DNA of 64,000 nt from a virus, in the IMG/VR virus record IMGVR_UViG_3300035670_000170, positions 4,977-68,976 of that record; one strand, written 5' to 3'. This document shows, piece by piece, positions 1,121 through 59,578 of this stretch. Under the pieces are notes generated by a model, which saw only the letters and a list, made by a program, of their open reading frames with translations, ran no database searches and was not told the origin of the DNA. The translations under genes and the position numbers were made by a program. Within the stretch, counting starts at the first letter, position 1; the number at the start of each line of letters is the position of its first letter.

Positions 1121-1186
1121 AGTGTAAAGATACGAATTGGATATGGCACGGTTTTTTTGCCGCACCCGATTTGGTATCTGATGGCA

Positions 1187-1214
1187 ATAAAAAAGGGGAG
1201 CGTTAACTCCCCTT
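1187..1214 (-). terminator. intrinsic terminator after SSB-like gene
   Basis: GGGGAG/CTCCCC stem with an A-run on the left (U-tail on the minus strand). Confidence 0.6.
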
Positions 1215-1240
1215 GGCTTAGTAAATCGGGCGCGACAATC

Positions 1241-1876
1241 TTAGAAAGGCAGATCATCTTCACCACCATCGTCAAACTTCTCATTACGGGCAAGTAGTTC
1301 CCCTTTCTTACTGGGGCGTTCTACACCACTTGGCACGTGTTGACTTGGGATAGTGTCAATCTTCTGTGGTATCTCTGACTTAACAAGCGACACAATGTGT
1401 TCCTCAAGGCGTGTCTTGTCAGAAATATCCTTTCCCTTAAACTTCACCTTATCAATGAACTTAGCCTGTTCGTCAAGGTCAAGTTTCCACGGTAGCTTTT
1501 GACCGTTCAGTTCCACATACGCGTTGTTGTACTTGTCTTTCTTGTACACGCTGATACGTAGCTTACCTGCAAGGCTATCGGCAGACAGCAGGCTGTTGAG
1601 GATAGATATACCCATTGATGAGCCAGTGTGGATGTCCACCTTGTATTGCTCATCCCCGTCGTGCATATTCAGCACGGCTTTGGTTTTCTTTTCCCCTTCG
1701 TACTCATACTCGCGGAACTCAATACCCGCAAGGGTGCCTTCGATGGTGTCAAAGGAATCAATCTCCTCATAGGAATCACCCATCTTTGCGATGCGCTTAA
1801 AGGCGGGTTTGTCTTCTGTGCTTCCTTTTAGGCGCAGGAAAATAGCGCTTCGTGCTTCACTGTTTGAGAGAGCCAT
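1241..1876 (-). CDS. putative single-stranded DNA-binding protein
   Basis: Beta-rich body, acidic tail ending DDGGEDDLPF, located in the replication module. Confidence 0.6.
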   Translation of the reverse strand: MALSNSEARSAIFLRLKGSTEDKPAFKRIAKMGDSYEEIDSFDTIEGTLAGIEFREYEYEGEKKTKAVLNMHDGDEQYKVDIHTGSSMGISILNSLLSADSLAGKLRISVYKKDKYNNAYVELNGQKLPWKLDLDEQAKFIDKVKFKGKDISDKTRLEEHIVSLVKSEIPQKIDTIPSQHVPSGVERPSKKGELLARNEKFDDGGEDDLPF

Positions 1877-1895
1877 GTTTATTTGGATTTAATGG

Positions 1896-2279
1896 TTACT
1901 TTTTGAATTTGCCCCTGAACATTTCGTCTATTATCAGACCTATTTGGCGGGCTTCCCGTTGGTTAATACGTATTTCTTCTTCCTTACCTTTTACTGTGGC
2001 GTTTAGGTTCTTGTCGACAGCAAATGTACCGTTTTCCAACTTAATTTCAACGTTTTTGTGGTGGAAATTGTGCAAATAATCAGGCACGCGAATACGACCA
2101 GCGCATAGCGCCCTTAGTATTTCTTCACTATCATACTGTCCCTTGTGGCGTATCTGTACCCACTCCCGCCCGTGGGGGGTGTCTACCTTTAGTTCGTACC
2201 GGAAGCCCTCTACAAACTCAAGTATGTGGGGGATACGGTAAGGGAAGTTCTGACTGAAGTATTGTTCTGCTTTATCCAT
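1896..2279 (-). CDS. hypothetical protein
   Basis: ORF between DnaB and SSB. Start moved to MDKAEQ after an A-rich leader. Confidence 0.65.
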   Translation of the reverse strand: MDKAEQYFSQNFPYRIPHILEFVEGFRYELKVDTPHGREWVQIRHKGQYDSEEILRALCAGRIRVPDYLHNFHHKNVEIKLENGTFAVDKNLNATVKGKEEEIRINQREARQIGLIIDEMFRGKFKK

Positions 2280-2316
2280 GTTAGTTGTTTTAGTTGGTAA
2301 ATCGGGCGCGACAATA

Positions 2317-3693
2317 TCAAAAAGGCACATCATCTTCGCCATACTCCCTCCTACGGTCAAAGTCTGCATTAGGTTTCACTACTGATTGAAATTCTTTTCT
2401 CCATTCACTAAACACACTCTGTTCTGGGTCAAACCTAAGTCTTATATCAGCAAGCGCACCGCCCCTGTGTTTAGATATGATAAACTCCGCCATGCCCACA
2501 GTGCTAAACCCTTCCTCATCCTGCATATCCCCATAGTATTCGGGTCGGTGTATAAACGCCACCATATCCGCATCCTGTTCAATAGCCCCCGATTCCCGTA
2601 GATTAGATAGCGTAGGTCTTTTACTGCCACGCTGCTCAACCGAACGGCTTAGCTGGCTTAGTGCAATAACAGGTATGTCCAACTCTTTCGCCAACACCTT
2701 TAGCCCACGGCTGATGCTACTAACTTCGTTCTCCCTGTTACCACCTTTCTCACCTGTCAACAGTTGCAGGTAGTCCAGTACAATCAGGTCAAGCCCATGC
2801 CTTGCCTTGTGGCGTGCCGCCATGCCGCGTAGTTCGTGGATGGTTAACGACGGGTCATCCCATATCCACAGGTTGTCCGTGGTGATTGCCGTAACGCCAT
2901 TATGTACCTTGTTCCAGTCAAGTAGCTTCGGTCGCCTAAAGGACGTGGTGTTGTATCCTGTTACGCGGGATAGTCGCCGCTTGTGTATTTCGTTGTTATT
3001 CATCTCAAGGCTGACCACCACGACCTTCTTTTTGAATTGCAGGGCTGCGTTATCTGCCATGTTCACGGCTAACATTGACTTACCCATTGCCGGACGTGCC
3101 GCAAGGATAATCAGGCTACTCTTTTGCCATCCCCCTGTTACCCTGTCAATGTCGTGGTACCCTGATGGGACACCTGTTATACCGTCTGATTCAATACTTG
3201 ATTCAATGTCCTTTATTACGTCCCTTAGTTGCTCTGCTGTTGTTTGGTGCGCCCGTTTTGGCATCGCTGATACATCCATAAGCCTTTTCGCGGCGTCTGT
3301 CAGTAACGTGTTAATAGGCTTTTTGATGTCTTGCGCGTCCGTGTATAGACCCCCAGCGTATGTGATTGTCTTACGTCGGATGTCAAGGTTGCATAGTAGG
3401 TCAATATACTCATCTAAGTGCCGTGCTGACGGGGCTACATTAAGTGATTCGGACAGGTACACGGCATCTACCTCACCGTATAGTTCCCGCATTTCGGTGG
3501 CTACCGTGACTAAGTTCACCGTCTTGCCCTTTTTGAACAGGGACATGGCGGCTTTGTATATCATGTTGTTATACTTATCGTAGAACGCTGTTTCAGGGAG
3601 TGCCGTGGCGCAGTCAAGGATGGCGTCGCTGTGCGATAGGATTGTGCCTATTACCCTACGTTCTAAGTCTAAGTCGTGTGGTGTTTCTGTCAT
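2317..3693 (-). CDS. dnaB: replicative DNA helicase DnaB
   Basis: N-terminal DnaB domain, Walker A AARPAMGKS, SLEM, LDYLQL, LSQLSR, LRESGAIEQDAD, KHRGG. Confidence 0.97.
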   Translation of the reverse strand: MTETPHDLDLERRVIGTILSHSDAILDCATALPETAFYDKYNNMIYKAAMSLFKKGKTVNLVTVATEMRELYGEVDAVYLSESLNVAPSARHLDEYIDLLCNLDIRRKTITYAGGLYTDAQDIKKPINTLLTDAAKRLMDVSAMPKRAHQTTAEQLRDVIKDIESSIESDGITGVPSGYHDIDRVTGGWQKSSLIILAARPAMGKSMLAVNMADNAALQFKKKVVVVSLEMNNNEIHKRRLSRVTGYNTTSFRRPKLLDWNKVHNGVTAITTDNLWIWDDPSLTIHELRGMAARHKARHGLDLIVLDYLQLLTGEKGGNRENEVSSISRGLKVLAKELDIPVIALSQLSRSVEQRGSKRPTLSNLRESGAIEQDADMVAFIHRPEYYGDMQDEEGFSTVGMAEFIISKHRGGALADIRLRFDPEQSVFSEWRKEFQSVVKPNADFDRRREYGEDDVPF

Positions 3694-3743
3694 TTATTCT
3701 TTGTTGGTTCGCCCGATTTAGCTGCTTCTGTTTAATTATCGTT

Positions 3744-4429: not shown

Positions 4430-4464
4430 CCAGAATTGACGTTACCAAATCGGGCGCGGCAAAA

Positions 4465-5121
4465 TTACTTGTCCCCGTCAGGATTCCATTCTTCTTTCTT
4501 AGCCCTTCCTTGTACAACCCATTCTAATGGGTCACGGTTAATATCCCTGCCGAACACAACACCAAACTTTCTGTACGCACCCTTATAGGCTAAACTCTCT
4601 GCTAACGGTAGCTTCTTTTGAAGTTCAAAGGGGTCGCGCATATCCTCAAGTAACGCACATCCAACGCCCATGTGTGACACGCCCGATTTGCTATCGCACA
4701 CCTCTGCCACCACCACCACGTTACCTACCTCTACGCGCCATTCCACAATGCGTGACGACCGAAAAGGCATCAGCACGTCGGCAGTGTCCTCAAGGTACTG
4801 TATTGGCACGTAGTTGACGTCGGGTAGCTGCGGGTGCTTGCGTATTGCGTCAGGCGGCACAGGGGAAGAAAATGATTGTGAAACCTTTTCCTCTACGGGC
4901 TGGTCAACCTTTTCTTTTGGCTGCTTATTTTTGGGTGTAATCAGTTTTATTTCGTCTATCTCGATTGACCAACGGGAGCCTGTGCCGCCTGACTTTGGGT
5001 TGTCCCAAGAAACATCTACGTCTTTTTTGGACACTAAGGCGACTGTCCCTGTACCGCCCTTGCGTATAAACTCATTACCAACAAGGCTCTTAACCCTGTC
5101 GCCTACCTTAAAATTGCTCAT
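4465..5121 (-). CDS. Sak/Rad52-like ssDNA annealing protein with N-terminal KVGDRV domain
   Basis: YVPIQYLE...GVG...AESLAYKGAYRKFGVVFGRDINR resembles Rad52/Sak, adjacent to an exonuclease. Confidence 0.65.
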   Translation of the reverse strand: MSNFKVGDRVKSLVGNEFIRKGGTGTVALVSKKDVDVSWDNPKSGGTGSRWSIEIDEIKLITPKNKQPKEKVDQPVEEKVSQSFSSPVPPDAIRKHPQLPDVNYVPIQYLEDTADVLMPFRSSRIVEWRVEVGNVVVVAEVCDSKSGVSHMGVGCALLEDMRDPFELQKKLPLAESLAYKGAYRKFGVVFGRDINRDPLEWVVQGRAKKEEWNPDGDK

Positions 5122-5137: not shown

Positions 5138-5878
5138 TTAAACTTCAATTACTTCTTCAATGGGTGTGTAGCTGCGCTTATCACACAGTTTGTTGAACAG
5201 GCAGTCAGCACACACGTTACAGTCCTTCGTGGGTATAGGCTCAAACTTGTTAACCATGTAGTCACGCACTTGGTCAATGATACGGTAGTGGTTTTCCATC
5301 GCTTCACTGCTGATACGGGCGCGGATAAACTTTATCCACCCGCTTTTGCCGAACACCAGATAGTAAAACGGGCGCACCACCCCATCGCGCAGGTAAGAAC
5401 CAAGGGTATAGTGTACAGCCTGTGTATGGTCAAGTGCATCAGGGACGCCCCACCCATACTTACCCTTGTCGTCTTTACGTGATGCAGTGTACTTAATGTC
5501 AATGATAACACTACTACCTTCGTAATCAGCAATGCAGTCAAGGTGAAACACCAAGTCCCCTTCAATGATTTCCGGCTGTACCTCTGTCACCTTTATGCCC
5601 ATCTTTGGTAGTGTGTTTTGCTTGTGGTACTTCGCCTGTGATACGGCTTGTGCTGCCCATGCGTAGCTTCCTTCCCCACGCTGTTTCTTTGGCGGCTCGA
5701 TCGTCTGGTGTCCCCGTGCGGCACCTATTAGTTCCTGTTCAAAGAGTAGGCCGGAGTACATTGCCTCTGTTGGCTCCGACCGTAGGCCGTCGATGTACTT
5801 TAGCTTGAGCATATAACGGCATCCGTCACGGTCTTGTACGTCCTTTATTAGGGACTGACTTATTAGTAGTTTATTCAT
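5138..5878 (-). CDS. PD-(D/E)XK nuclease (Cas4/RecB-like exonuclease)
   Basis: SQS..K...C, LDCI...IIDIK, Q...Y, C-terminal CxxC..C.....C cluster. Confidence 0.8.
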   Translation of the reverse strand: MNKLLISQSLIKDVQDRDGCRYMLKLKYIDGLRSEPTEAMYSGLLFEQELIGAARGHQTIEPPKKQRGEGSYAWAAQAVSQAKYHKQNTLPKMGIKVTEVQPEIIEGDLVFHLDCIADYEGSSVIIDIKYTASRKDDKGKYGWGVPDALDHTQAVHYTLGSYLRDGVVRPFYYLVFGKSGWIKFIRARISSEAMENHYRIIDQVRDYMVNKFEPIPTKDCNVCADCLFNKLCDKRSYTPIEEVIEV

Positions 5879-5920
5879 GTTGATTTGTTTTTTTGTTGCG
5901 CCCGTTTTGGTAAGGGAATC

Positions 5921-7371: not shown

Positions 7372-7419
7372 AGTTTTGTTCTTTTAATTCGCAACTGTAT
7401 TTATTACCAACCGTTACCA
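7287..7419 (+). other. attC-like hairpin B3
   Basis: GCACAAC; GTAATAAATCCAATTGC...GCAACTGTATTTATTAC; CAACC; GTTACCA. Confidence 0.78.
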
Positions 7420-7434
7420 AATCGGGCGATACAA

Positions 7435-7965
7435 TTAAGATTCGCTGCTTTCAAGCCCCTTCAGGTAGTCTTGGTAACGGGTGTATGCTTCAGTTAATTC
7501 GTCAGGTTGAAAATCAAGTTGATGAATGTACTCTTTGTCACACCACTCCCCAAACGTCATTACCTTATTAAGTTCACTCACCTTAACGTGTCCAACGGTT
7601 CCGTCGCAAAACTGGACAAGCACAAGTGGTTCGCTAATAACACCCACCCTTGCGCCTTTGTAGGTTGCGTCGTAATATATTTCAGCGGGTTCGGGCTTCT
7701 CTTGTTTGGGGAGTTCGACGTACGATTCGTCTACCCAATCAGTAGGCGTTCCGGTTTTCTCCGGCTCGATGGGTTGGAGATACTCCTGTCGCTGACCAAA
7801 CCTCAGGCTACTACTTTGGAAACGATTGTATATCATGTCCTGCGAATCCCAAATTACCCACGGAGTTGATTGATCGTCCTCAGCTACCGTTCCGGTTGCT
7901 CCGTACTTTAACACACCGTTGTCGACAATGTTACGCACCCTGTCGCCTTTCTTAAATTTTGCCAT
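7435..7965 (-). CDS. hypothetical protein with N-terminal KKGDRV domain
   Basis: 176-aa ORF whose N-terminus is shared with 4465..5121 and 12848..13528. Confidence 0.75.
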   Translation of the reverse strand: MAKFKKGDRVRNIVDNGVLKYGATGTVAEDDQSTPWVIWDSQDMIYNRFQSSSLRFGQRQEYLQPIEPEKTGTPTDWVDESYVELPKQEKPEPAEIYYDATYKGARVGVISEPLVLVQFCDGTVGHVKVSELNKVMTFGEWCDKEYIHQLDFQPDELTEAYTRYQDYLKGLESSES

Positions 7966-8275
7966 TTTCTTTGATTTTACTTGTTCTACGTTTACGATTG
8001 CCTTTGGGTTGCGAAAATTCCGAAATACTTTTCACCTTTCCAACTTTTATTAGGTCGAAAGTTCTTTTCTGTCGGTTATTCATTCGCCTAACGGATGAGT
8101 GGTGGATGAGGATAGGCGTAACGATTTGCCCGTCATCCTTTTGGTACTGTGGCATAGCAAAACGGGCGCCCACCCAAAAATAGTCCGGCATATTCTCATC
8201 TCCCATTGGTATGACAACACACCCATTGACGTGTCTTACTTCTATCACGTCTACTTCTATTACGTAGTATGCCAT
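7952..8275 (-). CDS. hypothetical protein
   Basis: Start moved to MAYY, directly after the repeated leader. Confidence 0.65.
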   Translation of the reverse strand: MAYYVIEVDVIEVRHVNGCVVIPMGDENMPDYFWVGARFAMPQYQKDDGQIVTPILIHHSSVRRMNNRQKRTFDLIKVGKVKSISEFSQPKGNRKRRTSKIKENGKI

Positions 8276-8355
8276 AGCTTGAATGGTTAAAATTGACACG
8301 TTTGCACTTGGTTCTTTTCACTATCATAAAAAGCTGTCCGGTGTTAGCGGACAAC
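8273..8355 (-). repeat. ~85-bp duplicated leader (second copy 9454-9543)
   Basis: CATAGCTTGAATGGTTAAA.TTGACACGTTTGCACTTGGTTCTTTTCACTATCA...AGCTGTCCG..CGGACA.CT occurs at both loci. Confidence 0.9.
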
Positions 8356-8499
8356 TGCGGGGGTCGGGGCGCCCGATTAGGCAATGGATTCTTCGATTAG
8401 CTGAATCGCAATTTGTACAAGTTTAGCACGTGCCGCCCTTGCCTGATTTTACTTCTTCAATCTTTTTCATTGTTCTGTGTGTTTTTCAGTTAATTACCC

Positions 8500-8748: not shown

Positions 8749-8831
8749 TGTTCTTTGTTTTTTACGTTCTTTGTTTCTGAAAGGTTACGATTCAAATATC
8801 ATTTTACCAAATCGGGCGCGGCAAAAATAGG

Positions 8832-8927
8832 TCAGCCATACGTCACCCACATAAGGCCAAACATCACCAAGGCAATGAACACAACATACAACACTATGTA
8901 CAATAACACGGTTACAATGGTTCTCAT
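8832..8927 (-). CDS. small membrane peptide (31 aa)
   Basis: MRTIVTVLLYIVLYVVFIALVMFGLMWVTYG; ATG overlaps the upstream stop; paralog at 9560..9697. Confidence 0.55.
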   Translation of the reverse strand: MRTIVTVLLYIVLYVVFIALVMFGLMWVTYG

Positions 8928-9193: not shown

Positions 9194-9240
9194 GGTTTCT
9201 ATTTGTTTAGTTGTTAATAATTCCTTACCAAATCGGGCGC

Positions 9241-9456
9241 TCAAAACCCATATTTCCGCATAACAGACAATATACGTTCGCCCTGCTTTACTGTCATCTG
9301 ACGCGTACCGTTCAACACACCATTGATATAAAAGGATGTAGTACCCGCTTCAATGGCTATGCCCTTTTTATTTATGCCGGGGCGGGAGAAAAATTCCTGC
9401 ATCCTCTTTACGGTGTCTTCGTCTACCTTCGGCATCAATTTTCTTTTTCTTTTCAT
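9241..9456 (-). CDS. Cro/XRE-like helix-turn-helix protein
   Basis: INKKGIAIEAGTTSFYINGVLNGTRQMT fits an HTH pattern. Confidence 0.7.
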   Translation of the reverse strand: MKRKRKLMPKVDEDTVKRMQEFFSRPGINKKGIAIEAGTTSFYINGVLNGTRQMTVKQGERILSVMRKYGF

Positions 9457-9559
9457 AGCTTGAATGGTTAAATTTGACACGTTTGCACTTGGTTCTTTTC
9501 ACTATCACTATCACGCAAAGCTGTCCGATTTTATCGGACAGCTATGGGGTTGGTTGTTG

Positions 9560-11792: not shown

Positions 11793-12847
11793 GGTTTCTA
11801 TTTGTTTATTTGTTTTACGTTGTTTTGTGCCGTTGTGTTACCAAATCGGGCGCCTCAATTAAAAGAGTAAGCATACCTTTTAGCTTCCATTGCAAGCCCC
11901 CATATAGTAGGGGTGAATTTGTATCGCTTCATGGTTTCTGTGTTTTTAATTATACTTCTTGTACGGCATCAGCGGAAACAAGGTTACAAAAAAATAGCAA
12001 AAAATAACCACGAATTTTATGCCGCTGACTGCCAATGAGTTACAGCACGTTGACGAACAAAAAAATTTGAGTTGTCTGTTTTTTTCGTCCAAGCCGTTTG
12101 TAAATGGCTAATTTTCAAACTTTGGCACGGTTTTATTTTTGTGCCGTTGTGTTACCAAATCGGGCGCGACAAAGAAAGGGAAACCACATAGGCACCAACA
12201 GTAGAGAAAGGAACAGACCAACAAAGGTAGCACACACACCAACGGGCAAAGCATGGATGAATTTGGCACGGTGGCTATCCCGTCCTTTAATCCTTTCAAT
12301 CTGCCGGAATTACTTGGCAAACGCCGTGAAACGGGCAACGAACAAACGGTGCGGGTGCCTGTGTTTTGGTTGTGCTGTCCCGTAATATGCATTATGTTAA
12401 ATTGTGGCGCAATTAGTCGGGCTGCGCGGCCTGTTAACTGCCTGAACGTCACCGGACGTACAAAATTTTCCGGTATGGGGCATGGGGTGGCGGAAACGGT
12501 TTTCCTTTGGCCGACCCACCCCCCGATACATACATACAACCCCACCCCGAAGCCTGCGTTGACCAGTTCTAAACGCCAGTGGTTTACAGCCACTTAGGGC
12601 AAACACCAAAAATTTGACTACTATGTATCAACCACTTGCGTATCCATTTCTGCTGGACTAAAATTATTTGTGCGATATTGGCTTTTGTGTTGTTGTTTAT
12701 TTGGCAAAAATGCGAAGTGTTCGCGGGGCGGTACAAATTATGTTTGGTTTGTTTGGGTATTTTGTGGTTAGGCGATGATTTTTGTAAAAATTGGTGTAAC
12801 CTTGTTGTGTGGTGATGCGTAATAATGGGAAACAAAAACACAGAAAT

Positions 12848-13528
12848 ATGACACCGAAGTTTAAGAGGGGAGATAGGGTGAAGAATCTTGTCGAGGATGG
12901 CACAATAAAAAGGGGCGCAACAGGAACAGTGGACGACGACGGGTCTTGCACTCCGTGGGTGATTTGGGATAGTCACGAAATGTTATACTTCGTGATAGGT
13001 GTAGGAATGCGTCGCTATCAAGCAGAATCCGCGCTTGAACTGATTGAGGCGGATGACAAGTCCCTTGCGTTAACCAAAAAACACAGAACAATGAAAAAGA
13101 TTGAGCAGGTAAAAGCAGGCAAGGCTGCTATTGAGAACACCGGAACGGTGGATGAGTTGAACAAGGTGTTAAAGTATTGTTGGCCGGATGATTTAGAATC
13201 CGCCGGGGTTGGTCGTTATTATTACGATGATGAAGGGTGGTGGAGGTCGTATAACCGCAACCCACTTGCAACCTCATACACCGTTCAGGAACTACTCGCG
13301 GAAATTGAGGGTGGTGTTGGCCTTCCAGTTCAGGAGTTGACTTTGCCCACCTTAACCAAGCGGGAGTATTTCGCCTTACAGGGCTTGCTTTCGATATACG
13401 ACACCATAGATATTGTCCCTAATAAAAGCAACGTCGAATACATGGCTAAACTTGCCGTATCAGCCGCCGACGCTCTTATTGCAGAACTTGAAAAATACTC
13501 GGTCAACGCCAATAGCAATGCCCGCTAA
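12848..13528 (+). CDS. composite hypothetical protein (KRGDRV domain plus further segments)
   Basis: Start MTPKFKRGDRV; a second A-rich leader and ATG at 13091; TAA stop lies in a CGCTAAC core. Confidence 0.7.
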   Translation: MTPKFKRGDRVKNLVEDGTIKRGATGTVDDDGSCTPWVIWDSHEMLYFVIGVGMRRYQAESALELIEADDKSLALTKKHRTMKKIEQVKAGKAAIENTGTVDELNKVLKYCWPDDLESAGVGRYYYDDEGWWRSYNRNPLATSYTVQELLAEIEGGVGLPVQELTLPTLTKREYFALQGLLSIYDTIDIVPNKSNVEYMAKLAVSAADALIAELEKYSVNANSNAR

Positions 13529-13563: not shown

Positions 13564-13624
13564 TTACCAAATCGGGCGAAACAAATAAATCGTGTTGTCC
13601 GTATAACGATCAAATCAAAAGAAC

Positions 13625-14612: not shown

Positions 14613-14636
14613 TTTTGTCGCGCCCGATTTGGTAGG

Positions 14637-15252: not shown

Positions 15253-15332
15253 CCCGCCCGATTTGGTATGCAATTAGATCGTGTCTTTAACGGTTTTAGC
15301 CAAATGCGTACTTTTGTGTAAACACTAATGAT

Positions 15333-15842: not shown

Positions 15843-15904
15843 TTTTTTTTTCTTAGAAACGAAACCCTTACCAAAACGGGCGCGTAGAAGAAAGAAAAAA
15901 CAAC

Positions 15905-40757: not shown

Positions 40758-40774
40758 TTCGTAAATTTGTAATT

Positions 40775-51200: not shown

Positions 51201-54200
51201 TGGGTTGCCAGAGGGTACGGTTGCCACCGTGGAGGACTTGGCGGCTGCATACTTAGAAGCACAGAACCCCGACGTACAAACACTTAGGGACGGACTACGG
51301 GGGCTACGCGTTAACCGTGACAGCTTTGTGCAGTTCGCTGACAAGAACTATATCACACAAGGGCTTGCCCGTGCGTGGTTCACCCGCAAGAAAGACAGGT
51401 CAGGTCGTGACCTTGACGAGATAGCACAGGAAATATCTGAAATGCGGGGACAAGAGGTAACACCACAGGACATTGTTGATATTATTGTTGAGAATCCAAA
51501 CGGGATACCGCAACGTTCTGAAAGGGCTGCCCGTATAAATGACCTGTACAAACAGAAAACAGGCAAGAACCTAAACACCAGTGTCGCAGCAAAGATACTG
51601 AACAAAAGGGGCGTTAAGGCCGTAAACAACGATATTGTAAAGGATGTCCTAAACATATTTGTAGGGCCATCAGGGAATATAAACACAGACGAACTAATAC
51701 GTGAAATAGAATCAGGCCCCGACTTCTTTATGGCGTGGCCTTACAGTCTAACAATGCAGGAATATGAAGAACTCAAAAAAGCAATCGCAGACCCAAAACG
51801 ACGAGAAGAAATACTTGGAGAAGCTACAAATTTTAAGAAAGACTATTCATGGGTTGAGGGATTTGACGAAGACTACGGAACCCAAGAAGAAGGAGGTATA
51901 GATGCCATTCAAGAGCAAGGCGCAACTGCGGTGGATGTACAAGAACAAGCCGCAGATGGCGAAAAGGTGGTCGAAGGAACACCCGAATCAGGACGTGAAG
52001 AAGCTGCCCAAGAAGGTCAGGAAGCGGTAAGTTTTGAAGCCGCCCGTGCAGTAGAACCACCCATCAAAGAGCGTGTTGAGCTTACGGGCACACGTGCAGA
52101 CCGGGTGGTGATAGATCGCATCAAAGAGGGCGCAAGCGAAAGCGCCAAAGCCCTGTTGGATAGGCTACCTAATGTTATGAAGGCGTTAAGGCGTTCAGGT
52201 GTTAACGTGCGTATAGTGCTACACCCATCGGCAGAATCGTTTAATGGCGTTGACGGTGAAACAGTTTCTATGCGTACTGGCAACGCTAAGATACTGCCTG
52301 ACGGCACCATCCACATTGATATGTCAAGTGCCACCACCACAGCAGGTAGCCTTGTGCATGAGGCCGTACACCAAGTTATATCTGACGTCATCGCCGCCGA
52401 CCCTATCAGGTTAGCAAAGATGGCTAACGACCTACGTGACACACTGAAAAAGGCTATGCCTGACGTGCATGAGGACTTGGAGGAATTTACCCAGCAGTAT
52501 GAGCCACAGGAGCGTGATGAGGAGTACGTCGCTGAATTTATGGCGATGGTGGCTGACGGGTACGTAGATATTGACAAGCTATCACCGCCAAAGAGGAAGT
52601 CTGTCTTAGAATGGTTTAACCGTTTGTTAAACGCTTTTGGCTTTGATTCCGTGAAGATTACAGATACCATGTCAGCTATTGACGTGGCGGCTGCGATCAA
52701 TAGGGCATTGGAGGAAGGTGTTAGGATAAAGTCAAAGGTGTCGAAAGCAAATCGGGCGCCCCAAACACGCCAGCAGAAGTTCTTAGACCGTATGAACGCA
52801 AGCCGTGATTCAAAGGGTCTACCACGTTGGGGCGAAAAGAAGCAGAAGTCATTAGAGCAGCAAGCCAAGGAAATGGCTGACGACCTAATAAAGGACTTCC
52901 CAGACGAAGAAACAAAGAAGATGTACGACTTTGCGTACAGCTACCACCTACGTCAGTTACAGGCACAGAACAAGCCTAAGTACCAGCGTGTACAAAGAAT
53001 ATCACCGGAGTTCAGAAAGGGATTGATAAAGCTATCCAAGCAGTACATAGAGAACGGTACACCCAAAGACCAGATAATAGAGGGGCTAAAGGAACAGGGA
53101 ATATTGTCATCACAGGCTAACGCTATTTACACAGAGGCAAAGAACCAAACCCTCAACGACATATCCCAAACAGACCCCATCGTAAAGGATGCTGTTAAGC
53201 AGCTTGAAAGCGGCATTAAGATAAGTGAGGTATCACAAAATGTGATAGCAGCACTGCCGGACAACAAAAAGGCACTGTCGGCGTTCTACGTGGCGGCGGC
53301 AATGAACAGGTACCTGTCACGCCCTAACGACTTTAAGGCTACCATCGACAAGAAGGTCGCTGAAATAAAGCAAAAGGCTAAAGATAAAGCCGAATTAAAG
53401 GGGGATAAAGACAAGGCGGCTAAAGAGATCAAGAAAGCCAAAGCAGCTATCAAAAGGGCTATGCGTGGCAAATCGGGCGACAAAAGGCTATTCGCCCGTG
53501 ACAAGACAACGCTAAAGACATTTGTGGGTATAAACCACAACCAACTATCAGACGAATCAAAGGCTGAATACCTTGCCGTATTAGCATCAGTGGCATCGTC
53601 AGTATCACCTGTTAAAGTATCAAACATAGAGGATGAATACATAGCACAGAACGCCCGTAGGGAATACACCAACGACGATATAGATGCGCTGAACGAAAAG
53701 TATTTGGCAGAGGTGGATAGCGAGAAGCGCCGCAGACTGCTTGACAAAGTGGCGTCATTCTACTCACAGATGGATATGGCGTTACCGGAGGAGTTTGGGT
53801 CAATGACAGTATCCGACCTTCAGGCATTAGCCGCCAACATCCTATCGGAAGAACAGCTACCTGATGTTGACAAGGAACAGGAACAGCAGCTAAAGCGTCA
53901 GGCACTACTTGAACTGGCGGCTGAATACGTTGCCGAAGCAGTGGCGGCTATGGACAGCGGGGTGATAGACACTGAATCAATGACCCCGTTGGAGAAGCGT
54001 ATCATTGACGGTATTTCAAACGGTAGCGTGGATGCCCTGTCGCTGAACGAGATAAAGACGTTGATAAAGGGGATGGATAACTTCGTTACCAACGGCAGCT
54101 TAGACGGCATGGGTAAGATTGCAGCACGCATGGAAGCCCCCGCCATCGTTAAGCAGTTCTTGGCGGAAAAGGTGAAGATGTGCGTGAAGTTCGGGAACTT

Positions 54201-56580
54201 GGATTTCTTTACCCGCTTTGCTGGCAGCATGGAGCAATACGTGGAAAGCGTCGCTGGCAGTAGCCGCCTTGGGGCTAAGTTCTATGCCATGAGTGGCATG
54301 GCACAGGTGTACGCTGGCGGTAGCCGTGCCGACAAGCGCATGGTTGACGGGTTCCTAAACCCATTAGGGGAACTGTACAAGAAATACCCAGATACCAAGA
54401 CACCCGAATCCATCATGGCGCGATTCATATACGGGTTTATGAATCAGAACTATGGCGGCACAGCCGATGAGGTAGCCGCAGAGTTTGAGCGCAGGAAAGG
54501 GTTGTTAGTGTCAGACATTGAGGCAAAGAAAAAGTCAAAGCGTAAAGACCTACGTGAGCAAGCGGAGCTGGAACAGCGGATGTTCGATATGCTTGTGGCT
54601 GACGCGTCGACAATAAAGGACGTTGTTTCTGCCATGACAAAGAACGGTCACACAGGCGCCCGTGAGATTGTTGACTTAGCCGTGTCGTTTGCCAGCACAT
54701 ACGCTAATGAGTACGACGAGATTAGTAGGGTTTACAATAACAACACCCTTGACCTTGTAAACAACTACTTGCCCAATAAGACAAAGAAAACAGCTATTAT
54801 CAGGGACGAAGACCTTGGCATAGATCAAGACATCAACTCTGTTGACCCATCGGTAATGACACCCAGTTCGACAAAGAACAGGTTTAAGTCCATGAAGCGC
54901 TTAGAGGGTAGCCGTGTTTACGACGTGGACTTCGACGCTATGGTTACTAATGAGTTCCGTCATGCCTTAACCTACATTGAAACCCTACCACACATCATGC
55001 GCTTTAAGGCCGTGATGAACACCAATGATTTGATTGAGGAGATGGGCGAGAAGAACGTTAAGTTCTTAGACCTGAAGATGACTAATGGTGTTAAGATTCT
55101 ACGGCGTATGTACCCCAGCGATGAGTATGCCCGTGCGCTGTCAAAGGCGACGTCGGGGTTAGCGTCGTTGGGTGCCAACATAAGCCTTGCGGGTATCACC
55201 CAGCCCATGAAACAGGTGTTACCTGTTGCGTTCAGGGCGATGACGGCGGCAGCAGTAAGAAAGAAGGGCGCAGCGGCGGCACTACACACAACCCTTAGCG
55301 GTGCTAACTACAACGAAGGGCTGTTCTCTAAAGGGACTATCCTAAGCCGCAAGGAAACACGCGGTGGCTATCAGTTTGAGCGCTTAGAGGATTCTGTTGT
55401 CAAAGCCCAACGCGGCGTCCTGTCGAAAGCCTTTGGTAAGTACCTGTCGGCGCGTCGTAAGGCAGCAGACCTAACGATGTACCCATTAACACAGTCGGAT
55501 TACTTTGCTGCGCGTAAGGCGTGGGTGTCGTACTATGCAGAGAATCTACTTCAAAGGGGCGTGTATAAAAGCTGGCGCGACATTGACTGGCAAAAGGAAT
55601 CAGCAGACCCAAATGAAGAAGCGTCGGCGTATGCAGAGATAATGCTGTCACGTTCACAGAACGTCAATACTATGGCGGCGGCGTCGGAAATGATGACGCG
55701 TACAGGTGGATATAAGGACATTTGGCGAAATATCTTTTTCCCCTTTGCGTCGTTCACGATGAATAACAACGTCACCCGTTGGATAAACTTTAAGCGGTTG
55801 CTGTGGGGCAGTCCGACAGAAAAGGCTATTGCCTTTGGGGACATCACCGCACAGGGGGTGGAGGCACTGGCGTTTAACAGCATTAAGCTGTTGTTGATAT
55901 ACCCACTTAGGATATACCTTGTCAAGGAAGTTCTAAAGGCTATGTTCGACTATGACGATGAGGAGGTGGATGCTATCGTGTCGTCAAATGAACTACCGCA
56001 CCGTGTACACCAAGTCATTGCCCAGTCTACCATTGATATGACCTTCGGGGGCTTCTCATCGCAGTCTGACATGGCAGTGAAGTATGCCGTTAACGACTAT
56101 TACAAGAATGTGCTACTGCCGTTCTTTGACGTGGACACAGACAAGGATTTGTTCTATCAGGGTAACATGAGTAGCGATGAGATCAGTACGTTCTTGTCGT
56201 CTATTGGTTCTTACGGTATATTGGCGCAGCAGTTGTTGGACATAGCTGATGTTGCTGAAAGCACGATGTTTGGCTTTAGTGATACTATCATGCTTGACCC
56301 AAACCCGTTTGATGCAAGCACGGAAAAGGTGGAGTACAAGATGACCGAAGACCAGCAGCGGGCGTTACAGATGTATTTGATATTCCACGGAGTCACGATG
56401 TTGACGGGCTTAAACGACGTTGACGCACGGACTATTGTGAATAAAATTCAGAAGGGGGTAGAGCGTGATATTAAGAGGGGTGGTAAAACGGGCGGGTCAA
56501 ACAGTGGCACGTTAGAGGCCAAGCCGATGTCAGGGCGTTCGTTAAGCACCCAAAGCCTGTCGTCAAGGCGTCTAAGATAG
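48226..56580 (+). CDS. giant virion cargo/polyvalent protein with zincin-like motif
   Basis: 2784 aa; LVHEAVH...EEYVAE at about 52351-52540; Gly/Ala hydrophobic segments. Confidence 0.65.
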   Translation: MNDKALQALYKDLSGEYEVGSYDDFKSYMANPTNRKKLYDNVIVKRYNVSDYNQFESTYATAPAQGEPVKKKESTIGGIASEASVSEAQSTSQGDELAVQAEVTDTKTGAPKQGIGALAVSVIPTKDEVAYKTISSQRQKAVDRDIDANAQATISEIASSISPETEAQIQTEYENYKATLPIPQKPKDYNQYRLDYIKDYYGIKDSKGIADIDARYKAKSEAAKRQRELDEAVSVFAKKFSERPSSPIYSNLLNATKLIEKPKEGDDKAEPVDVSGRFKRNIDTPAGTTTVDILTQGISSVPEGGIQFYANNSPRRVYVGGVDSKPESFAVDELGNRTDEPDKVKQSLSQFTPNTADALTPVDDNQYAIFKKVIEDYATENPEKAKQIGRPQTLYSQSWDRGDYRLKQEWDVVKDGAFVREAIKYQKEKLANEYTQRVTQLEKQFAQDIAARPDKQAVYDSDFEVQKANLALQYNSAEKYLDLMYNGYVRANIKNADRVETEIAYQQAERDIKEIEAMREADKQWYNKQNAVVQFGVDVWDGFADAGKEIVRGVESLGYLATGTDMPDEQKRFYVQYDAMRAGSDESLVRDATSMIAQTAAIMAPAGWIGGTLKTLGVGAKVAQTTGIVTSSYLQTAGTSYIDAMAQGMDSETAMVYGNVMGLSQGFVEAIFPSDYLFGGVRTQMKKNIVNILKNASPAEIRRMTSGQVIRSAFSEFANETKKEMVEEVAAYLSEKGINFTMNQVTGKDILDDEVTIKDMANAAGGAAIVGTFFGGSRVIKSFKNSAVFPVQMQYEYLAASDPDGVMEKIEFAKKEGALTDVQYKNAKDRLNSLVEQKKAVDAASPEMSEFNKAVLVNMRADKDEAVKYAKTLDETDPVDARILQTMNEKIATIDALQNDILKGEDAGKAYAKYLNESMGIISRGVEEAGTQQPQAEVIPDGVVVEDIPDEDAFSVFGFEQMSGEQLADIQEQIDLRESGYDEMAEIIAKELGLPEGTVATVEDLAAAYLEAQNPDVQTLRDGLRGLRVNRDSFVQFADKNYITQGLARAWFTRKKDRSGRDLDEIAQEISEMRGQEVTPQDIVDIIVENPNGIPQRSERAARINDLYKQKTGKNLNTSVAAKILNKRGVKAVNNDIVKDVLNIFVGPSGNINTDELIREIESGPDFFMAWPYSLTMQEYEELKKAIADPKRREEILGEATNFKKDYSWVEGFDEDYGTQEEGGIDAIQEQGATAVDVQEQAADGEKVVEGTPESGREEAAQEGQEAVSFEAARAVEPPIKERVELTGTRADRVVIDRIKEGASESAKALLDRLPNVMKALRRSGVNVRIVLHPSAESFNGVDGETVSMRTGNAKILPDGTIHIDMSSATTTAGSLVHEAVHQVISDVIAADPIRLAKMANDLRDTLKKAMPDVHEDLEEFTQQYEPQERDEEYVAEFMAMVADGYVDIDKLSPPKRKSVLEWFNRLLNAFGFDSVKITDTMSAIDVAAAINRALEEGVRIKSKVSKANRAPQTRQQKFLDRMNASRDSKGLPRWGEKKQKSLEQQAKEMADDLIKDFPDEETKKMYDFAYSYHLRQLQAQNKPKYQRVQRISPEFRKGLIKLSKQYIENGTPKDQIIEGLKEQGILSSQANAIYTEAKNQTLNDISQTDPIVKDAVKQLESGIKISEVSQNVIAALPDNKKALSAFYVAAAMNRYLSRPNDFKATIDKKVAEIKQKAKDKAELKGDKDKAAKEIKKAKAAIKRAMRGKSGDKRLFARDKTTLKTFVGINHNQLSDESKAEYLAVLASVASSVSPVKVSNIEDEYIAQNARREYTNDDIDALNEKYLAEVDSEKRRRLLDKVASFYSQMDMALPEEFGSMTVSDLQALAANILSEEQLPDVDKEQEQQLKRQALLELAAEYVAEAVAAMDSGVIDTESMTPLEKRIIDGISNGSVDALSLNEIKTLIKGMDNFVTNGSLDGMGKIAARMEAPAIVKQFLAEKVKMCVKFGNLDFFTRFAGSMEQYVESVAGSSRLGAKFYAMSGMAQVYAGGSRADKRMVDGFLNPLGELYKKYPDTKTPESIMARFIYGFMNQNYGGTADEVAAEFERRKGLLVSDIEAKKKSKRKDLREQAELEQRMFDMLVADASTIKDVVSAMTKNGHTGAREIVDLAVSFASTYANEYDEISRVYNNNTLDLVNNYLPNKTKKTAIIRDEDLGIDQDINSVDPSVMTPSSTKNRFKSMKRLEGSRVYDVDFDAMVTNEFRHALTYIETLPHIMRFKAVMNTNDLIEEMGEKNVKFLDLKMTNGVKILRRMYPSDEYARALSKATSGLASLGANISLAGITQPMKQVLPVAFRAMTAAAVRKKGAAAALHTTLSGANYNEGLFSKGTILSRKETRGGYQFERLEDSVVKAQRGVLSKAFGKYLSARRKAADLTMYPLTQSDYFAARKAWVSYYAENLLQRGVYKSWRDIDWQKESADPNEEASAYAEIMLSRSQNVNTMAAASEMMTRTGGYKDIWRNIFFPFASFTMNNNVTRWINFKRLLWGSPTEKAIAFGDITAQGVEALAFNSIKLLLIYPLRIYLVKEVLKAMFDYDDEEVDAIVSSNELPHRVHQVIAQSTIDMTFGGFSSQSDMAVKYAVNDYYKNVLLPFFDVDTDKDLFYQGNMSSDEISTFLSSIGSYGILAQQLLDIADVAESTMFGFSDTIMLDPNPFDASTEKVEYKMTEDQQRALQMYLIFHGVTMLTGLNDVDARTIVNKIQKGVERDIKRGGKTGGSNSGTLEAKPMSGRSLSTQSLSSRRLR

Positions 56581-57866: not shown

Positions 57867-57867
57867 T

Positions 57868-58101
57868 ATGAAATACAAATTTGAACAATTCAAAGTAACA
57901 ATAGACAACCCAACGGTAACGGTTGACATGAATACCATTCGGGATAAAGCTATTGACAAACTTTTGAGCGTGGACATTATATTAACAACCAACACGGCTT
58001 CGTTTGGCGTAACGGCTGAAGATATGCCATACGACCCAACGTGGGAGGACGACATGGTTCAGGATATGGTTAATAATTGGCTTGTGCAATTTGAAGTGTA
58101 A
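57868..58101 (+). CDS. small partner of fibre protein 1
   Basis: 77 aa, NP.V...TWED..V; paralog-like to 58790..59155. Confidence 0.65.
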   Translation: MKYKFEQFKVTIDNPTVTVDMNTIRDKAIDKLLSVDIILTTNTASFGVTAEDMPYDPTWEDDMVQDMVNNWLVQFEV

Positions 58102-58166
58102 TTTTTATAGTTTACACAAGTATATTTTTTTTTACAAAAGATTATACTTATTTTATTCTTCGATTT

Positions 58167-58793
58167 ATGGGGGCATTTGGGAAAAGCGGTAGTGGTATTT
58201 ACAAGATGGGTGGTGATGGTGCATGCCCTGAAAGGTATAATTCTGCCAACCCTTACAAGACGGGACAAACCACATCGTATGTAAGCAACGATGATGGCGA
58301 TTTAGAACGTGGTAGAGGTTCGGATTTCACAACGCTTGACTTTAATAACCCGTTTGGAAACACCAATAGATTTACCGACACGCTGGGCGGTCAGACGTAT
58401 GCGAATGATATTGTTATTGATTGGGCGACTACCAACTACATAGCGGAAACAGTTATCGGTTGGTATCGGGTAGTTCAGGGTGGTGCAGGAGTTAATTGGA
58501 CTACGGCAATGGCAGCACAACCAGTAACGGCAGAGGGGTACAATGATTGGTACGTGCCCAATAAGAATGAATTTACTTTAATAATTAGCAGCGAGAATAG
58601 TATAAACTACAATCCTTTTAGTTTAACCCATAACTTGTGGACATCAAGTTCGCGCGATGCAAGTGCGGCAAGAGTTTATCAAGAAACACAAAAAGATTTA
58701 CAAAGTCAAACAAAAACATTGACATTGCTAAATGGTAACGCAATAGGCTACATATTACTACGTTACTTCACCTTCACAGAATTAGGACTATGA
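58167..58793 (+). CDS. DUF1566/Lcl C-type-lectin-like fibre protein 2
   Basis: Same motifs (KTGQTTSY, GYNDWYVPNKNE, LWTSS); first 58 nt identical to protein 1. Confidence 0.8.
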   Translation: MGAFGKSGSGIYKMGGDGACPERYNSANPYKTGQTTSYVSNDDGDLERGRGSDFTTLDFNNPFGNTNRFTDTLGGQTYANDIVIDWATTNYIAETVIGWYRVVQGGAGVNWTTAMAAQPVTAEGYNDWYVPNKNEFTLIISSENSINYNPFSLTHNLWTSSSRDASAARVYQETQKDLQSQTKTLTLLNGNAIGYILLRYFTFTELGL

Positions 58794-59155
58794 TACCAAT
58801 TAAAAACACATTTGAAGTCGAAACCCATCCGGGGGTTACGATAGTAAACCCCGACATTGAATTGGTGACTACGGTGGACATCGCCCGTGATGAGGTGTTT
58901 CAGCCTACGGTGATAATCCACGCAGAAAACATAAAGATTTACCACGTGCTGCCCTTGCAGCCATACGTTGACGGAACGTGGACGGATGAGGACGTTGACA
59001 ATGCAATAGTTAATTACTTCACGCTGTTTGGCGGCAGGGCTTCAAGGAAGTCGGTTAGGATGCCAAATCGGGCGGGACAAAAGAAATTGAAGGCCATAAA
59101 AAAAACAACGATATGGAAAAGGATATTGTCATACCTAAAAAAACTATTCGCATGA
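58790..59155 (+). CDS. small partner of fibre protein 2
   Basis: NP.I...TWTDEDV with a basic C-terminal extension. Confidence 0.6.
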   Translation: MIPIKNTFEVETHPGVTIVNPDIELVTTVDIARDEVFQPTVIIHAENIKIYHVLPLQPYVDGTWTDEDVDNAIVNYFTLFGGRASRKSVRMPNRAGQKKLKAIKKTTIWKRILSYLKKLFA

Positions 59156-59394
59156 TACACAACGTAGACAACTTGAAGGAATCAATATCCGACGTAATAG
59201 GATGGGGCGGCACGATTATGGCTGTCAGCTTCCCGCTTTTGGACGGCTTACAGCAATGGGCGCAAACACTTGGCGCCTGTGGTGGTGTCGTCCTCCTCTT
59301 TATCACAATCATAAACAAGGTGCGTGATTCACGGATAAAGAAGTTAGAGATTAAGAAACTTGAAAAAGAGATTAACGATGCAGAAGGTTTATGA
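59152..59394 (+). CDS. holin-like membrane protein
   Basis: Hydrophobic segments plus a charged C-terminus, in the lysis region. Confidence 0.5.
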   Translation: MIHNVDNLKESISDVIGWGGTIMAVSFPLLDGLQQWAQTLGACGGVVLLFITIINKVRDSRIKKLEIKKLEKEINDAEGL

Positions 59395-59578
59395 CTTTGT
59401 AGGCGGTCGCAAGATGTTTGTGGCCTTCCTGTTGTTCGCCCTTAGTGGGTCGCTGTGGTTCTTTAACCGTGACATCATGGCATCCGACCTGTTCCAGTTT
59501 TGGGAGTGGGTAACGGCAATCCTTGTGGTGGGAAATGTAAGTAGTAAGTTCGCTAATCGGGCGCCCGAAAACAAATGA
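59378..59578 (+). CDS. holin-like membrane protein
   Basis: GGRKMFVA, two TM helices, VGNVSSK. Confidence 0.6.
   Translation: MQKVYDFVGGRKMFVAFLLFALSGSLWFFNRDIMASDLFQFWEWVTAILVVGNVSSKFANRAPENK

Follow-up and report, generated by a model that had tools for sequence, protein, structure and literature searches.

A phage-private, asymmetric 13-nucleotide word with orientation rules at gene ends, and its possible role in punctuating transcription units

What is a 13-nucleotide (nt) word doing when it recurs all over one viral genome, between genes as well as inside essential ones? The question is raised by IMG/VR virus record IMGVR_UViG_3300035670_000170, a phage genome of 68,976 bases with a 103-base terminal repeat. 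The window studied here is the 64,000-base stretch from base 4977 to base 68976 of this record, and positions below are those of the window unless stated otherwise. Its genes point leftward from 1 to 11.8 kb, rightward from 12.8 to 60.5 kb and leftward again at the right end. The word, CCAAAWCGGGCGC, is a real, strong, phage-private DNA signal, and it follows positional rules that are new.

Exact matches number 16 on the two strands of the window, against 0.01 expected, and none of 100 dinucleotide shuffles reached 16; the whole genome of ~69 kb holds 18. With up to two mismatches there are 44 copies (30 plus, 14 minus) between 1162 and 59564, while 3.17 are expected and the richest shuffle had 8. 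An earlier note on this DNA had estimated about 43 copies, 30 plus and 13 minus, which was essentially correct. Counts of 8- to 11-mers over all 68,976 bases are headed by sub-words of the motif. A weight matrix made from the 44 copies finds 49 sites of at least 15.8 bits in the whole genome (31 plus, 18 minus). Such sites are absent from the final 4.4 kb of the window, and the best score in 5 shuffles was 14.8 bits. The density is about one copy per 1.4 kb, on both strands. Gaps between copies are no more even than random (coefficient of variation 1.04), and copies are concentrated in the early region. The excess of the plus strand, 30:14, is significant (p=0.023). Minus-strand copies are restricted to the left 62% of the window, the trailing run of 10 copies being all plus (p=0.012), and minus copies tend to be followed shortly after by a plus copy (median 449 nt, permutation p=0.026).

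The 23 copies within open reading frames (ORFs) of at least 100 amino acids (aa) occupy every frame (sense 6/6/4, antisense 2/3/2). The peptides PNRAP, KTGA, KSGA, QIGRP and ARF, which the earlier note had read at coding copies, are all present, and its picture of a non-palindromic motif lying both in intergenic DNA and, in different frames, within essential genes is confirmed by these 23 copies and by the asymmetry of the logo. It had also asked for a comparison with a codon-preserving shuffle. In the 59 ORFs of at least 100 aa (54,312 nt), 8, 18 and 24 matches are observed at up to 0, 1 and 2 mismatches, and 200 synonymous-codon shuffles of the same ORFs give means of 0.085, 1.08 and 5.86 (maxima 1, 6 and 12). 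Because copies stand in all frames, exceed the codon shuffle and overlay homologous residues without insertion, the sequence data support the view that the nucleotide word itself (DNA or RNA), and not a peptide, is under selection; the DNA-level selection proposed earlier is thus borne out.

The signal is longer than the word. In an alignment of the 44 copies, conservation extends from -5 to +18 and reads S-W-T-A, core, S-N-C-A-A-A, with T at -2 in 38 copies, A at -1 in 32, C at +15 in 31 and A at +17 in 37. The following stretch, +14 to +28, is 66-71% A+C in the junction, sense intragenic and antisense intragenic classes alike, compared with 52% for the sense strand of genes. The full signal is therefore TA, the 13-nt core, SNCAAA and an A/C-rich tail. 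We call the TTAC side the head and the CAAA side the tail. Since conserved flanks and A/C-rich tail are common to all classes, the functional unit appears to be about 28 nt long and one-directional.

The copies were placed on a refined gene list, from which 22 short shadow ORFs had been removed by hand and to which 7 small ORFs had been added. By this list, non-coding DNA (8.3%) holds 21 of the 44 copies (P=6e-12). The geometry at stops and starts was compared with 5000 random placements on a near-identical list (20 ORFs removed, 5 added). The tail points toward a stop codon within 15 nt in 10 of 44 copies, against 0.55 at random (class A, after-stop), and toward a start at 10-80 nt in 9 of 44, against 2.04 at random, P=0.0002 (class S, before-start). 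The head faces a stop in one copy (0.55 at random), the sole case being that between the convergent portal and HNH genes. Gaps from core to stop are 7, 7, 7, 5, 12, 0, 7, 1, 7 and 13 nt, exactly 7 in half of them; gaps from core to start are 15, 19, 69, 45, 23, 21, 74, 37 and 39 nt. After-stop copies are inverted (antisense) and before-start copies are sense. The individual copies, with the hairpins found beside three of them, are as follows.

1162..1174, minus: one mismatch, non-coding, sense, just upstream of the start of gene 824..~1150 (minus); back-to-back with 1221 (plus)
1221..1233, plus: class A, 7 nt past the stop of 1241..1876 (minus), tail toward the stop
2297..2309, plus: class A, 7 nt past the dnaB stop (2317)
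3249..3261, minus: exact, within dnaB, sense, frame 0
3709..3721, minus: class S, 15 nt upstream of the dnaB ATG, D6 hairpin before the copy
4445..4457, plus: exact class A, 7 nt past the stop of 4465..5121 (minus); 30 nt identical to the copy after terL
4679..4691, minus: within 4465..5121 (minus), sense
5363..5375, plus: within the PD-(D/E)XK nuclease gene 5138..5878 (minus), antisense
5898..5910, minus: exact class S, 19 nt upstream of ATG 5878, D6 hairpin before the copy
7417..7429, plus: class A, 5 nt past the stop of 7435..7965 (minus)
8157..8169, plus: within 7952..8299 (minus), antisense
8369..8381, minus: class S, 69 nt upstream of start 8299
8807..8819, plus: exact class A, 12 nt past the stop of the small ORF 8832..8927 (minus)
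9228..9240, plus: exact class A, abuts the stop of 9241..9480 (minus)
11841..11853, plus: exact, in the ~1-kb non-coding region between divergent blocks; 41 nt (90%) in common with the 12155 copy
12155..12167, plus: exact, same ~1-kb non-coding region as the 11841 copy
13567..13579, plus: class S, 45 nt upstream of ATG 13625, D6-like hairpin before the copy
14366..14378, minus: within 14232..14612 (plus), antisense
14620..14632, minus: exact class A, 7 nt past the stop of 14232..14612 (plus)
14902..14914, plus: class S, 23 nt upstream of ATG 14938
15254..15266, minus: class A, 1 nt past the stop of 14938..15252 (plus)
15871..15883, plus: exact class S, 21 nt upstream of ATG 15905
20589..20601, minus: within 19982..20893 (plus), antisense; left one of the two copies that mark the left border of the glycosyltransferase/methyltransferase insertion; 29 nt (93%) in common with 38707
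20792..20804, plus: within the 3' end of 19982..20893 (plus), sense, 86 nt upstream of start 20890
21288..21300, minus: weaker (18.5 bits, matrix only), within 20890..21645 (plus), antisense
23342..23354, minus: within 22795..23454 (plus), antisense; right border of the glycosyltransferase/methyltransferase insertion
23632..23644, plus: exact, within the glycosyltransferase gene 23447..24856 (plus), sense
26164..26176, plus: two-mismatch match in terL over a conserved P-K dipeptide, below the matrix threshold; probably chance
27302..27314, plus: exact, within terL, sense, over the variable loop after invariant T579
27695..27707, minus: exact class A, 7 nt past the terL stop, then a D6 hairpin; left border of the 811-nt insert
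28412..28424, plus: class S, portal start 74 nt downstream; makes a 35-nt inverted repeat (86%) together with the 30948 copy
30948..30960, minus: exact class A, 13 nt past the portal stop, abuts the HNH stop
32111..32123, minus: weaker (17.8 bits, matrix only), within the winged helix-turn-helix (wHTH) gene, sense
32740..32752, plus: exact, within 32506..33615 (plus), sense; right-hand copy of the pair that encloses the HNH/wHTH cassette
38707..38719, plus: within 37974..39722 (plus), sense
39878..39890, minus: within the 78-aa ORF 39722..39958 (plus), antisense; last minus-strand copy
40115..40127, plus: within 39963..40757 (plus), sense, over the conserved peptide YQ.GRP
40856..40868, plus: in the gap 40758..41227
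43012..43024, plus: exact, within the 1212-aa structural gene, sense
45818..45830, plus: within the 1212-aa structural gene, sense
48542..48554, plus: exact, within the 2784-aa gene, sense
49383..49395, plus: within the 2784-aa gene, sense
52747..52759, plus: within the 2784-aa gene, sense
53468..53480, plus: within the 2784-aa gene, sense
56483..56495, plus: weaker (23.9 bits, matrix only), 3' end of the 2784-aa gene, sense
59063..59075, plus: 3' end of 58790..59155 (plus), sense, 37 nt upstream of start 59113
59552..59564, plus: 3' end of a 72-aa ORF, sense, 39 nt upstream of start 59604
3742-3793, 5919-5970, 6852-6903, 27724-27775 and 61080-61131: D6 hairpin, beside the motif copies at 3709 (minus), 5898 (minus) and 27695 (minus)

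Since the tail faces the adjacent gene in both classes, genes or small operons are bracketed by inward-pointing copies. Such enclosures are formed around dnaB (3709 minus, 2297 plus), the nuclease gene and its neighbour (5898 minus, 4445 plus) and the portal gene (28412 plus, 30948 minus), and also by the pairs 8369 minus/7417 plus, 13567 plus/14620 minus and 14902 plus/15254 minus. A further copy with the same before-start layout is found at record position 730, outside the window. A loose end at 14620, which resembled a variant junction, corresponds to this copy of the same genome. In the plus-strand genes from terL on, 13 copies are sense and one, in the 78-aa ORF, is antisense (p=0.002). 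By the refined list the intragenic copies comprise 17 sense and 6 antisense ones; the antisense copies at 5363, 8157, 14366, 20589 and 23342, with the matrix-only site at 21288, are all in early or accessory genes.

The setting of several before-start copies resembles that of a promoter. The D6 repeat is a 52-nt stem-loop (GGGGGCT...AGCCCCC, with a loop of ~21 nt) present in five copies between small genes. At 3709 (minus), 5898 (minus) and 13567 (plus) the order is upstream stop, D6 or D6-like stem-loop, motif, A-rich leader and ATG. Judged by position, the before-start copies look like occupants of the place of a promoter or operator; a stem-loop together with a motif at promoter position is found for 4-5 of the 44 copies only. 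At 1162 (minus) an intrinsic-terminator-like hairpin with a T-run (1214-1193) lies between the after-stop and the before-start copies. The 106-nt module that contains both (1145-1250) folds with a 16-bp outer stem built by the two copies themselves (z -5.2). Between the divergent gene blocks, about 1 kb (11793-12808) is without a convincing gene and carries two extended motif copies, each preceded by a hairpin. This region could be an origin or control region.

Is the motif shared with related phages or with hosts? The terminase large subunit (TerL) of this phage is only 33-35% identical to that of cultured Flavobacterium, Cellulophaga, Tenacibaculum and Maribacter phages, and at most 50% identical to any protein of a large metagenome collection. 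In 84 loci around TerL homologues (36-50% identity, 1.07 Mb) there were no matrix matches of at least 15.8 bits, and no enriched word of their own is seen in L205 and L206, the closest of these loci. The exact 13-mer was also counted in 5 + 401 genomes (2-7 Mb each) of the likely host phylum, Bacteroidota, to which a Saprospiraceae metagenome-assembled genome belongs. It occurs 0-7 times per genome, with any copy at all in 58 of the 401, against 18 in the phage, which agrees with the earlier view that the signal belongs to the phage and not to the host. A viral collection (72 loci) and a genome collection (at least 120 loci), scanned for exact matches, gave single or double matches at chance level among the matches listed. 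By tblastx, a gene in common with the phage is present in 3 of these 192 listed loci, none of which has several copies. Four 13-mer forms of the motif were not found in the papers searched. Two of the related loci have repeats of other kinds. L209 (Ga0208161_1000058, 21,947 nt; TerL 40%) has its own dispersed word, AATTGTGYA, in 29 copies in 22 kb (39 if the 7-mer is counted), on both strands. The word stands at the start codon of several genes, and all copies in structural genes are antisense. Word and geometry are different, and it was rejected as a case of the same system. In L204 (IMGVR_UViG_3300025655_000002), the segment 441-3143 contains six same-strand copies of an intergenic repeat of ~30 nt, AATACAATACCGAAC...AAAT.TAAAC, which looks like a classical promoter family.

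Comparison with the syntenic metagenome relative L206 provides some clues to how copies arise. The window is collinear with L206 over 17.6-40.8 kb (16 proteins, 27-66% identity). In TerL, the copy lies over a variable loop after an invariant threonine and adds at most one residue. At six sites in five further genes, alignment to L206 shows homologous codons replaced by the copy; 3 of the 6 sites are gapless and 3 have small indels nearby. Some copies also agree in their flanks. Behind two unrelated genes the match covers 30 nt at 100% and takes in the stop codon; two intragenic copies that differ in sense share 29 nt at 93%, the pair 11841/12155 shares 41 nt at 90%, and a 35-nt inverted repeat at 86% surrounds the portal gene. 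Contigs from 4 DNA runs of one study break at repeats, with no pile-up of contig beginnings or ends. We read these data as pointing to in-place creation of copies followed by short-patch gene conversion, not to insertion of a mobile element. Relative to L206, the window has three extra segments: four genes of glycosyltransferase/methyltransferase type (20893-23447); an 811-nt spacer between terL and portal (27688-28498) with two small minus-strand ORFs, where L206 has 114 nt; and an HNH + wHTH cassette (30935-32505) between portal and the next structural gene. Back-to-back copies flank 3 of 3 of these insertions and 1 of 12 other syntenic junctions (Fisher 0.0088, one relative).

Which protein could read such a word? 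Protein families were scanned for 60 proteins against PHROGs and 20 against Pfam, a scope within which remote homologues could escape. The scans recognised DnaB at 2317..3693 (minus), a PD-(D/E)XK nuclease, two DNA methyltransferase-like genes, glycosyltransferases, GroES-like genes, terL (25567..27687), portal (28499..30934), several virion proteins, an endolysin, two HNH endonucleases and one SbcD-like exonuclease. Among the scanned proteins there was no DNA polymerase, primase, RNA polymerase, sigma factor or integrase and no transposase or RAYT-like gene, and no immunity module was noticed. Searches with Rfam and for tRNAs gave no match. For the 2784-aa 'cargo' ORF (48226-56580), neither PHROGs nor Pfam nor PDB gave a relative, and the DFDxD motif is missing. 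A crAss-type polymerase in that protein was rejected on these grounds, and the phage cannot be called crAss-like by way of a virion RNA polymerase. Two genes of one cassette are of interest here.

31559..32302, minus: orphan protein with two wHTH units, candidate reader; cassette absent from L206
30961..31539, minus: HNH endonuclease gene, same cassette as the wHTH gene; candidate nickase under the nicking explanation only

The ATG form of the wHTH protein (P0123, 219 aa, ATG at 32218) has 5 remote relatives among 1.84 billion representatives, and all 5 carry winged-helix families (HTH_24, MarR, Crp-like). In its AlphaFold model, two winged-helix units are joined by a long helix (mean pLDDT 66.8). 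A Foldseek search against PDB returned generic winged-helix regulators only, with no match at E <= 0.001. Family and feature matches thus indicate a double winged-helix DNA binder, as the earlier note had supposed, and the protein is a candidate for reading the motif. Its cassette is missing from L206, which lacks the motif, a correlation of one.

The host is probably of Bacteroidota type. The pattern TTTG-N-TAnnTTTG, which we take to be the Bacteroidota-type promoter consensus, has 5 matches, one of them at 35099-35127 (plus), 22 nt upstream of gene 35150..36250, which may be a highly expressed capsid gene. This match and the A-rich leaders without Shine-Dalgarno sequences fit such a host. 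Readings of the motif core itself as a sigma-54 or a Bacteroidota -33/-7 promoter were dropped, since spacing and letters misfit by eye.

The polarity at stops and starts, together with the sense-only rule in late genes, suggests that the motif is transcription-unit punctuation read by a phage-specified factor. We prefer this explanation tentatively and with somewhat less than even confidence. The motif would be a promoter or operator toward its tail, and a polar barrier (or a convergent promoter) against polymerases from the tail side. The bound factor, or RNA polymerase recruited by it, would start transcription toward the tail, and the same factor would block or collide with polymerases coming from the other direction. 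One word could then be a promoter one way and a polar terminator or insulator the other way. The sense-only copies of the late genes may reinforce late transcription or shield these genes from antisense transcription. Copies would arise in place and be homogenised by short-patch gene conversion, which would also make them convenient recombination borders for accessory cassettes. A more ambitious version, which we consider rather improbable, is a 'bracket code' of one word and one phage protein, perhaps the two-wHTH protein, acting as promoter and polar barrier: inward copies would insulate core genes from accessory cassettes, and the cassettes would dock in the spaces between back-to-back copies by recombination at the word. 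If true, the transcription domains of a virus would obey a convergent-site rule, and gene regulation would be coupled to modular genome evolution via one word that propagates itself by short-patch conversion.

Several observations weigh against transcription-unit punctuation. None of the proteins scanned was recognised as an RNA polymerase, a sigma factor or any other protein of transcription. The 6-7 antisense intragenic copies are awkward, as a polar barrier would cut those genes. The copy at 2297 is inside an apparent operon, 7 nt past the dnaB stop and ~26 nt before the likely ATG at ~2270. If it were an efficient terminator, there would be no room for a new promoter before that ATG. The host-type promoter before gene 35150 means that host polymerase can serve late genes without the motif. 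Two of the D6 hairpins (6852, 61080) stand directly before start codons without any motif, and a local hairpin is absent at after-stop copies (6 regions folded, z -1.25 to +1.46). The plus strand is preferred in both gene blocks (10:6 and 20:8), which hints at a genome-wide polarity independent of transcription. Finally, the non-coding counts hinge on manual edits of the gene list. If the greedy ORF list is left raw, just 7 of the 44 copies count as strictly intergenic; the remaining copies of the 21 lie in ORFs of 40-86 aa that were judged spurious.

The plus excess in both gene blocks agrees with a strand-polar DNA transaction, an unlikely alternative. Here the HNH endonuclease, guided by the wHTH protein, would nick the motif sequence-specifically, or the motif would be a recombination hotspot, and nick-stimulated repair would leave conversion patches and mosaic borders. 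The HNH and double-wHTH genes adjoin in a cassette bracketed by two copies. Flanks shared by sub-families of copies well past the core, patch-like overwriting of homologous codons and copies at all three indel borders also agree with such events. The nick sites described for phages (T5, phiKMV-like phages and tf) have asymmetric consensus sequences of short or medium length, but in each of these systems every site lies on one strand (PMC3517423), and here the strands share 30 and 14 copies. Moreover, the 7-nt stop distance, the rule that the tail faces the gene and the A/C-rich tail are all unpredicted by nicking, and the HNH cassette resembles a recent insertion. The common flanks could also be left by a selfish or neutral dispersed repeat (REPIN/MITE-like), spread by copy-paste or biased gene conversion without any phage function. 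Back-to-back pairs can indeed fold to long hairpins like REPINs, as the 1145-1250 module does, and assembly graphs break at copies. We regard this as quite improbable, because half of the copies are in essential genes with frame-neutral codon replacement (4 of 7 aligned sites without length change, the others with small indels). Gene-end polarity and the late-gene sense rule further imply that orientation is selected, the composition of the tail is kept even where its sequence is not, and the scanned proteins include no transposase or RAYT-like gene.

The density on both strands, the asymmetric core followed by an A/C-rich tract in every context and the phage's own DnaB-type helicase bring to mind a replication start or loading site, recognised by primase or used for helicase or primosome loading, with the A/C-rich tail as primer sequence. 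This is very doubtful, since the spacing is random-like with clustering in the early region, no primase or DNA polymerase was recognised among the scanned proteins, and the stop/start geometry is left unexplained. Known primase sites are also far shorter than a specific site of 13 to 21 nt. The same irregular spacing, and the lack of a primase among the scanned proteins, argue against the earlier note's analogy with primase sites. Its analogy with parS is not supported because the motif is not palindromic, nor is that with Chi and KOPS, because the information content of the site is far higher. Action as RNA deserves little credence, although it would make use of the bracketing of genes by complementary copies, of the 35-nt inverted repeat around portal and of the strong folding of the 1145-1250 module. 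Sense copies in 5' leaders would pair with inverted copies at 3' ends, in cis or via 3'-derived small RNAs, and messages would thereby be stabilised, processed or coupled. However, there is no co-variation of the W position within brackets (4 of 6 pairs match, ~0.55 expected, by hand count), 16-17 sense copies are deep within ORFs, some copies have an untranscribed-looking orientation, and no Rfam family matches. Least credible of all is a host signal carried by the phage, such as Chi, KOPS or a DNA-uptake sequence. Uptake sequences do come to mind when copies are scattered over both strands, in genes in all frames and as inverted pairs near gene ends, and a Chi-like site of a linear genome could show minus copies confined to the left part followed by a run of plus copies. 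But the sampled genomes have the exact 13-mer only 0-7 times each (the true host may be unsampled), the viral and genome collections gave single chance-level matches, none homologous, among the matches listed, and the 84 related phage loci gave none.

The signal in this genome is exceptionally clear and rich in information, and it follows rules that can be tested: the 7-nt stop offset, the tail toward the gene and sense-only copies in late genes. The Bacteroidota podophages related to Cellulophaga and Flavobacterium phages are a large, mostly uncultivated group whose transcription signals are almost unknown. If the motif is both a start and a polar stop, it would be a compact regulatory part with a private reader, useful to know for phage biology and as an orthogonal genetic part. 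The coincidence with accessory insertion borders is a handle on gene swapping in such phages. In addition, the motif illustrates the extent to which protein-coding sequence can be overwritten by a signal at the DNA level.

Some other repeats and genes of the window were noted in passing. A repeat family, D16, is 54 nt long and hairpin-like and is present at 7069-7122, 61872-61925 and 63443-63496, in accessory gene arrays at both genome ends. A small gene with its flanks is duplicated 57 kb apart (3795-4082 and 61132-61416, 84-86% identity), and an 80-nt gene start is duplicated 1.1 kb apart (57056-57135 and 58145-58224, 94%). A 49-nt inverted repeat (90%) has its arms, 8437-8485 and 13076-13124, in the two divergent gene blocks; both arms read MKKIE..., and the second is inside gene 12809..13528. 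Two paralogous tiny hydrophobic ORFs, 8832-8927 (minus, 31 aa) and 9560-9697 (minus, 45 aa), have TVLLYI.LY..FIALV in common and would be overlooked by ordinary gene calling. The match of the 114-aa ORF 62827-63171 (minus) to the MT-A70 methyltransferase family (E 3.8e-10) is confined to the C-terminal part, and the ORF may be a fragment or a split gene.

How does the motif compare with known systems? The repressors of the L5 gp71 type are described as monomers with two HTH-type domains whose asymmetric 13-mer binding sites number more than 20 and lie in promoters and short intergenic spaces; they halt elongation in one orientation only (PMC9283540). Their sites, the stoperators of Cluster A mycobacteriophages, are similar to the present motif in the respects covered by that account. 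Both are asymmetric 13-nt words with more than 20 copies genome-wide (here 16 exact and 44 near), and some of the present copies likewise stand at promoter positions and in short intergenic spaces by starts and stops (19 copies here abut starts or stops). Both look orientation-dependent, the after-stop copies here being polar 10 to 1, and the two-HTH monomer has a possible counterpart in the two-wHTH orphan. On the other hand, 23 of 44 copies here are inside genes, and before-start and after-stop copies are opposite relative to transcription, so that no single orientation holds. The fold search found no gp71 homologue (no match at E <= 0.001), the scanned proteins include no integrase or immunity module, and the host is of Bacteroidota type.

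The promoter part of PeSLs is of the host sigma-70 type. PeSLs of T4-type phages are composite terminator/promoter repeats at indel borders, their promoter part being called the 'early promoter' (Pe) in the description available (PMC4122927). As in PeSLs so described, a stem-loop and a motif at promoter position are repeated here at ORF borders in plastic regions, and insertion borders coincide with the repeats (3 of 3, against one relative). The present core differs in that it lacks TTTG/TAnnTTTG and has no recognised host consensus. The present word is also found alone, inverted after stops and inside core genes, and recombination at its copies is putative.

Promoters of T7 type are asymmetric and ~23 nt long, and transcription starts inside the conserved block. 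They resemble the present signal in length and information content, in a contiguous asymmetric GC-rich block followed by a composition-biased initial region and in many copies per genome, some of them within upstream genes. Unlike them, the motif has no cognate polymerase among the scanned proteins, has mid-gene copies and points against local genes in ~40% of copies. The 9 before-start copies and 13 of 14 late-gene copies are co-oriented with the genes downstream; the 10 after-stop and the 6 intragenic antisense copies are not. The nick motifs of T5, phiKMV-like phages and tf are likewise phage-private asymmetric consensus words with a dozen or more sites, and that of T5, R/GCGCRGG, has the GCGC core in common with the present motif; in that source, these motifs are single-strand only and unrelated to gene ends (PMC3517423), whereas here both strands are used and a gene-end rule applies.

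In the crAss-like phage phi14:2, middle and late promoters are reported as tripartite, with -35/-10-like elements used by host polymerase; 120 of 137 matches of the motif are intergenic, all but four of those sense, and the early transcripts are reported to have no common motif (bioRxiv 10.1101/2020.03.07.982082). As far as that report describes it, phi14:2 shares with the present phage a Bacteroidota host, distantly related packaging genes and a conserved upstream motif common to several genes; its promoter is tripartite and -35/-10-like, in contrast to the contiguous word found here. On the preferred explanation, the motif would work like stoperators and PeSLs. It is a member of neither, because its orientation relative to transcription is mixed, half of its copies are intragenic, no gp71 homologue was found and the core is not a host promoter. 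It may best be regarded as a variant of the dispersed asymmetric regulatory sites of phages.

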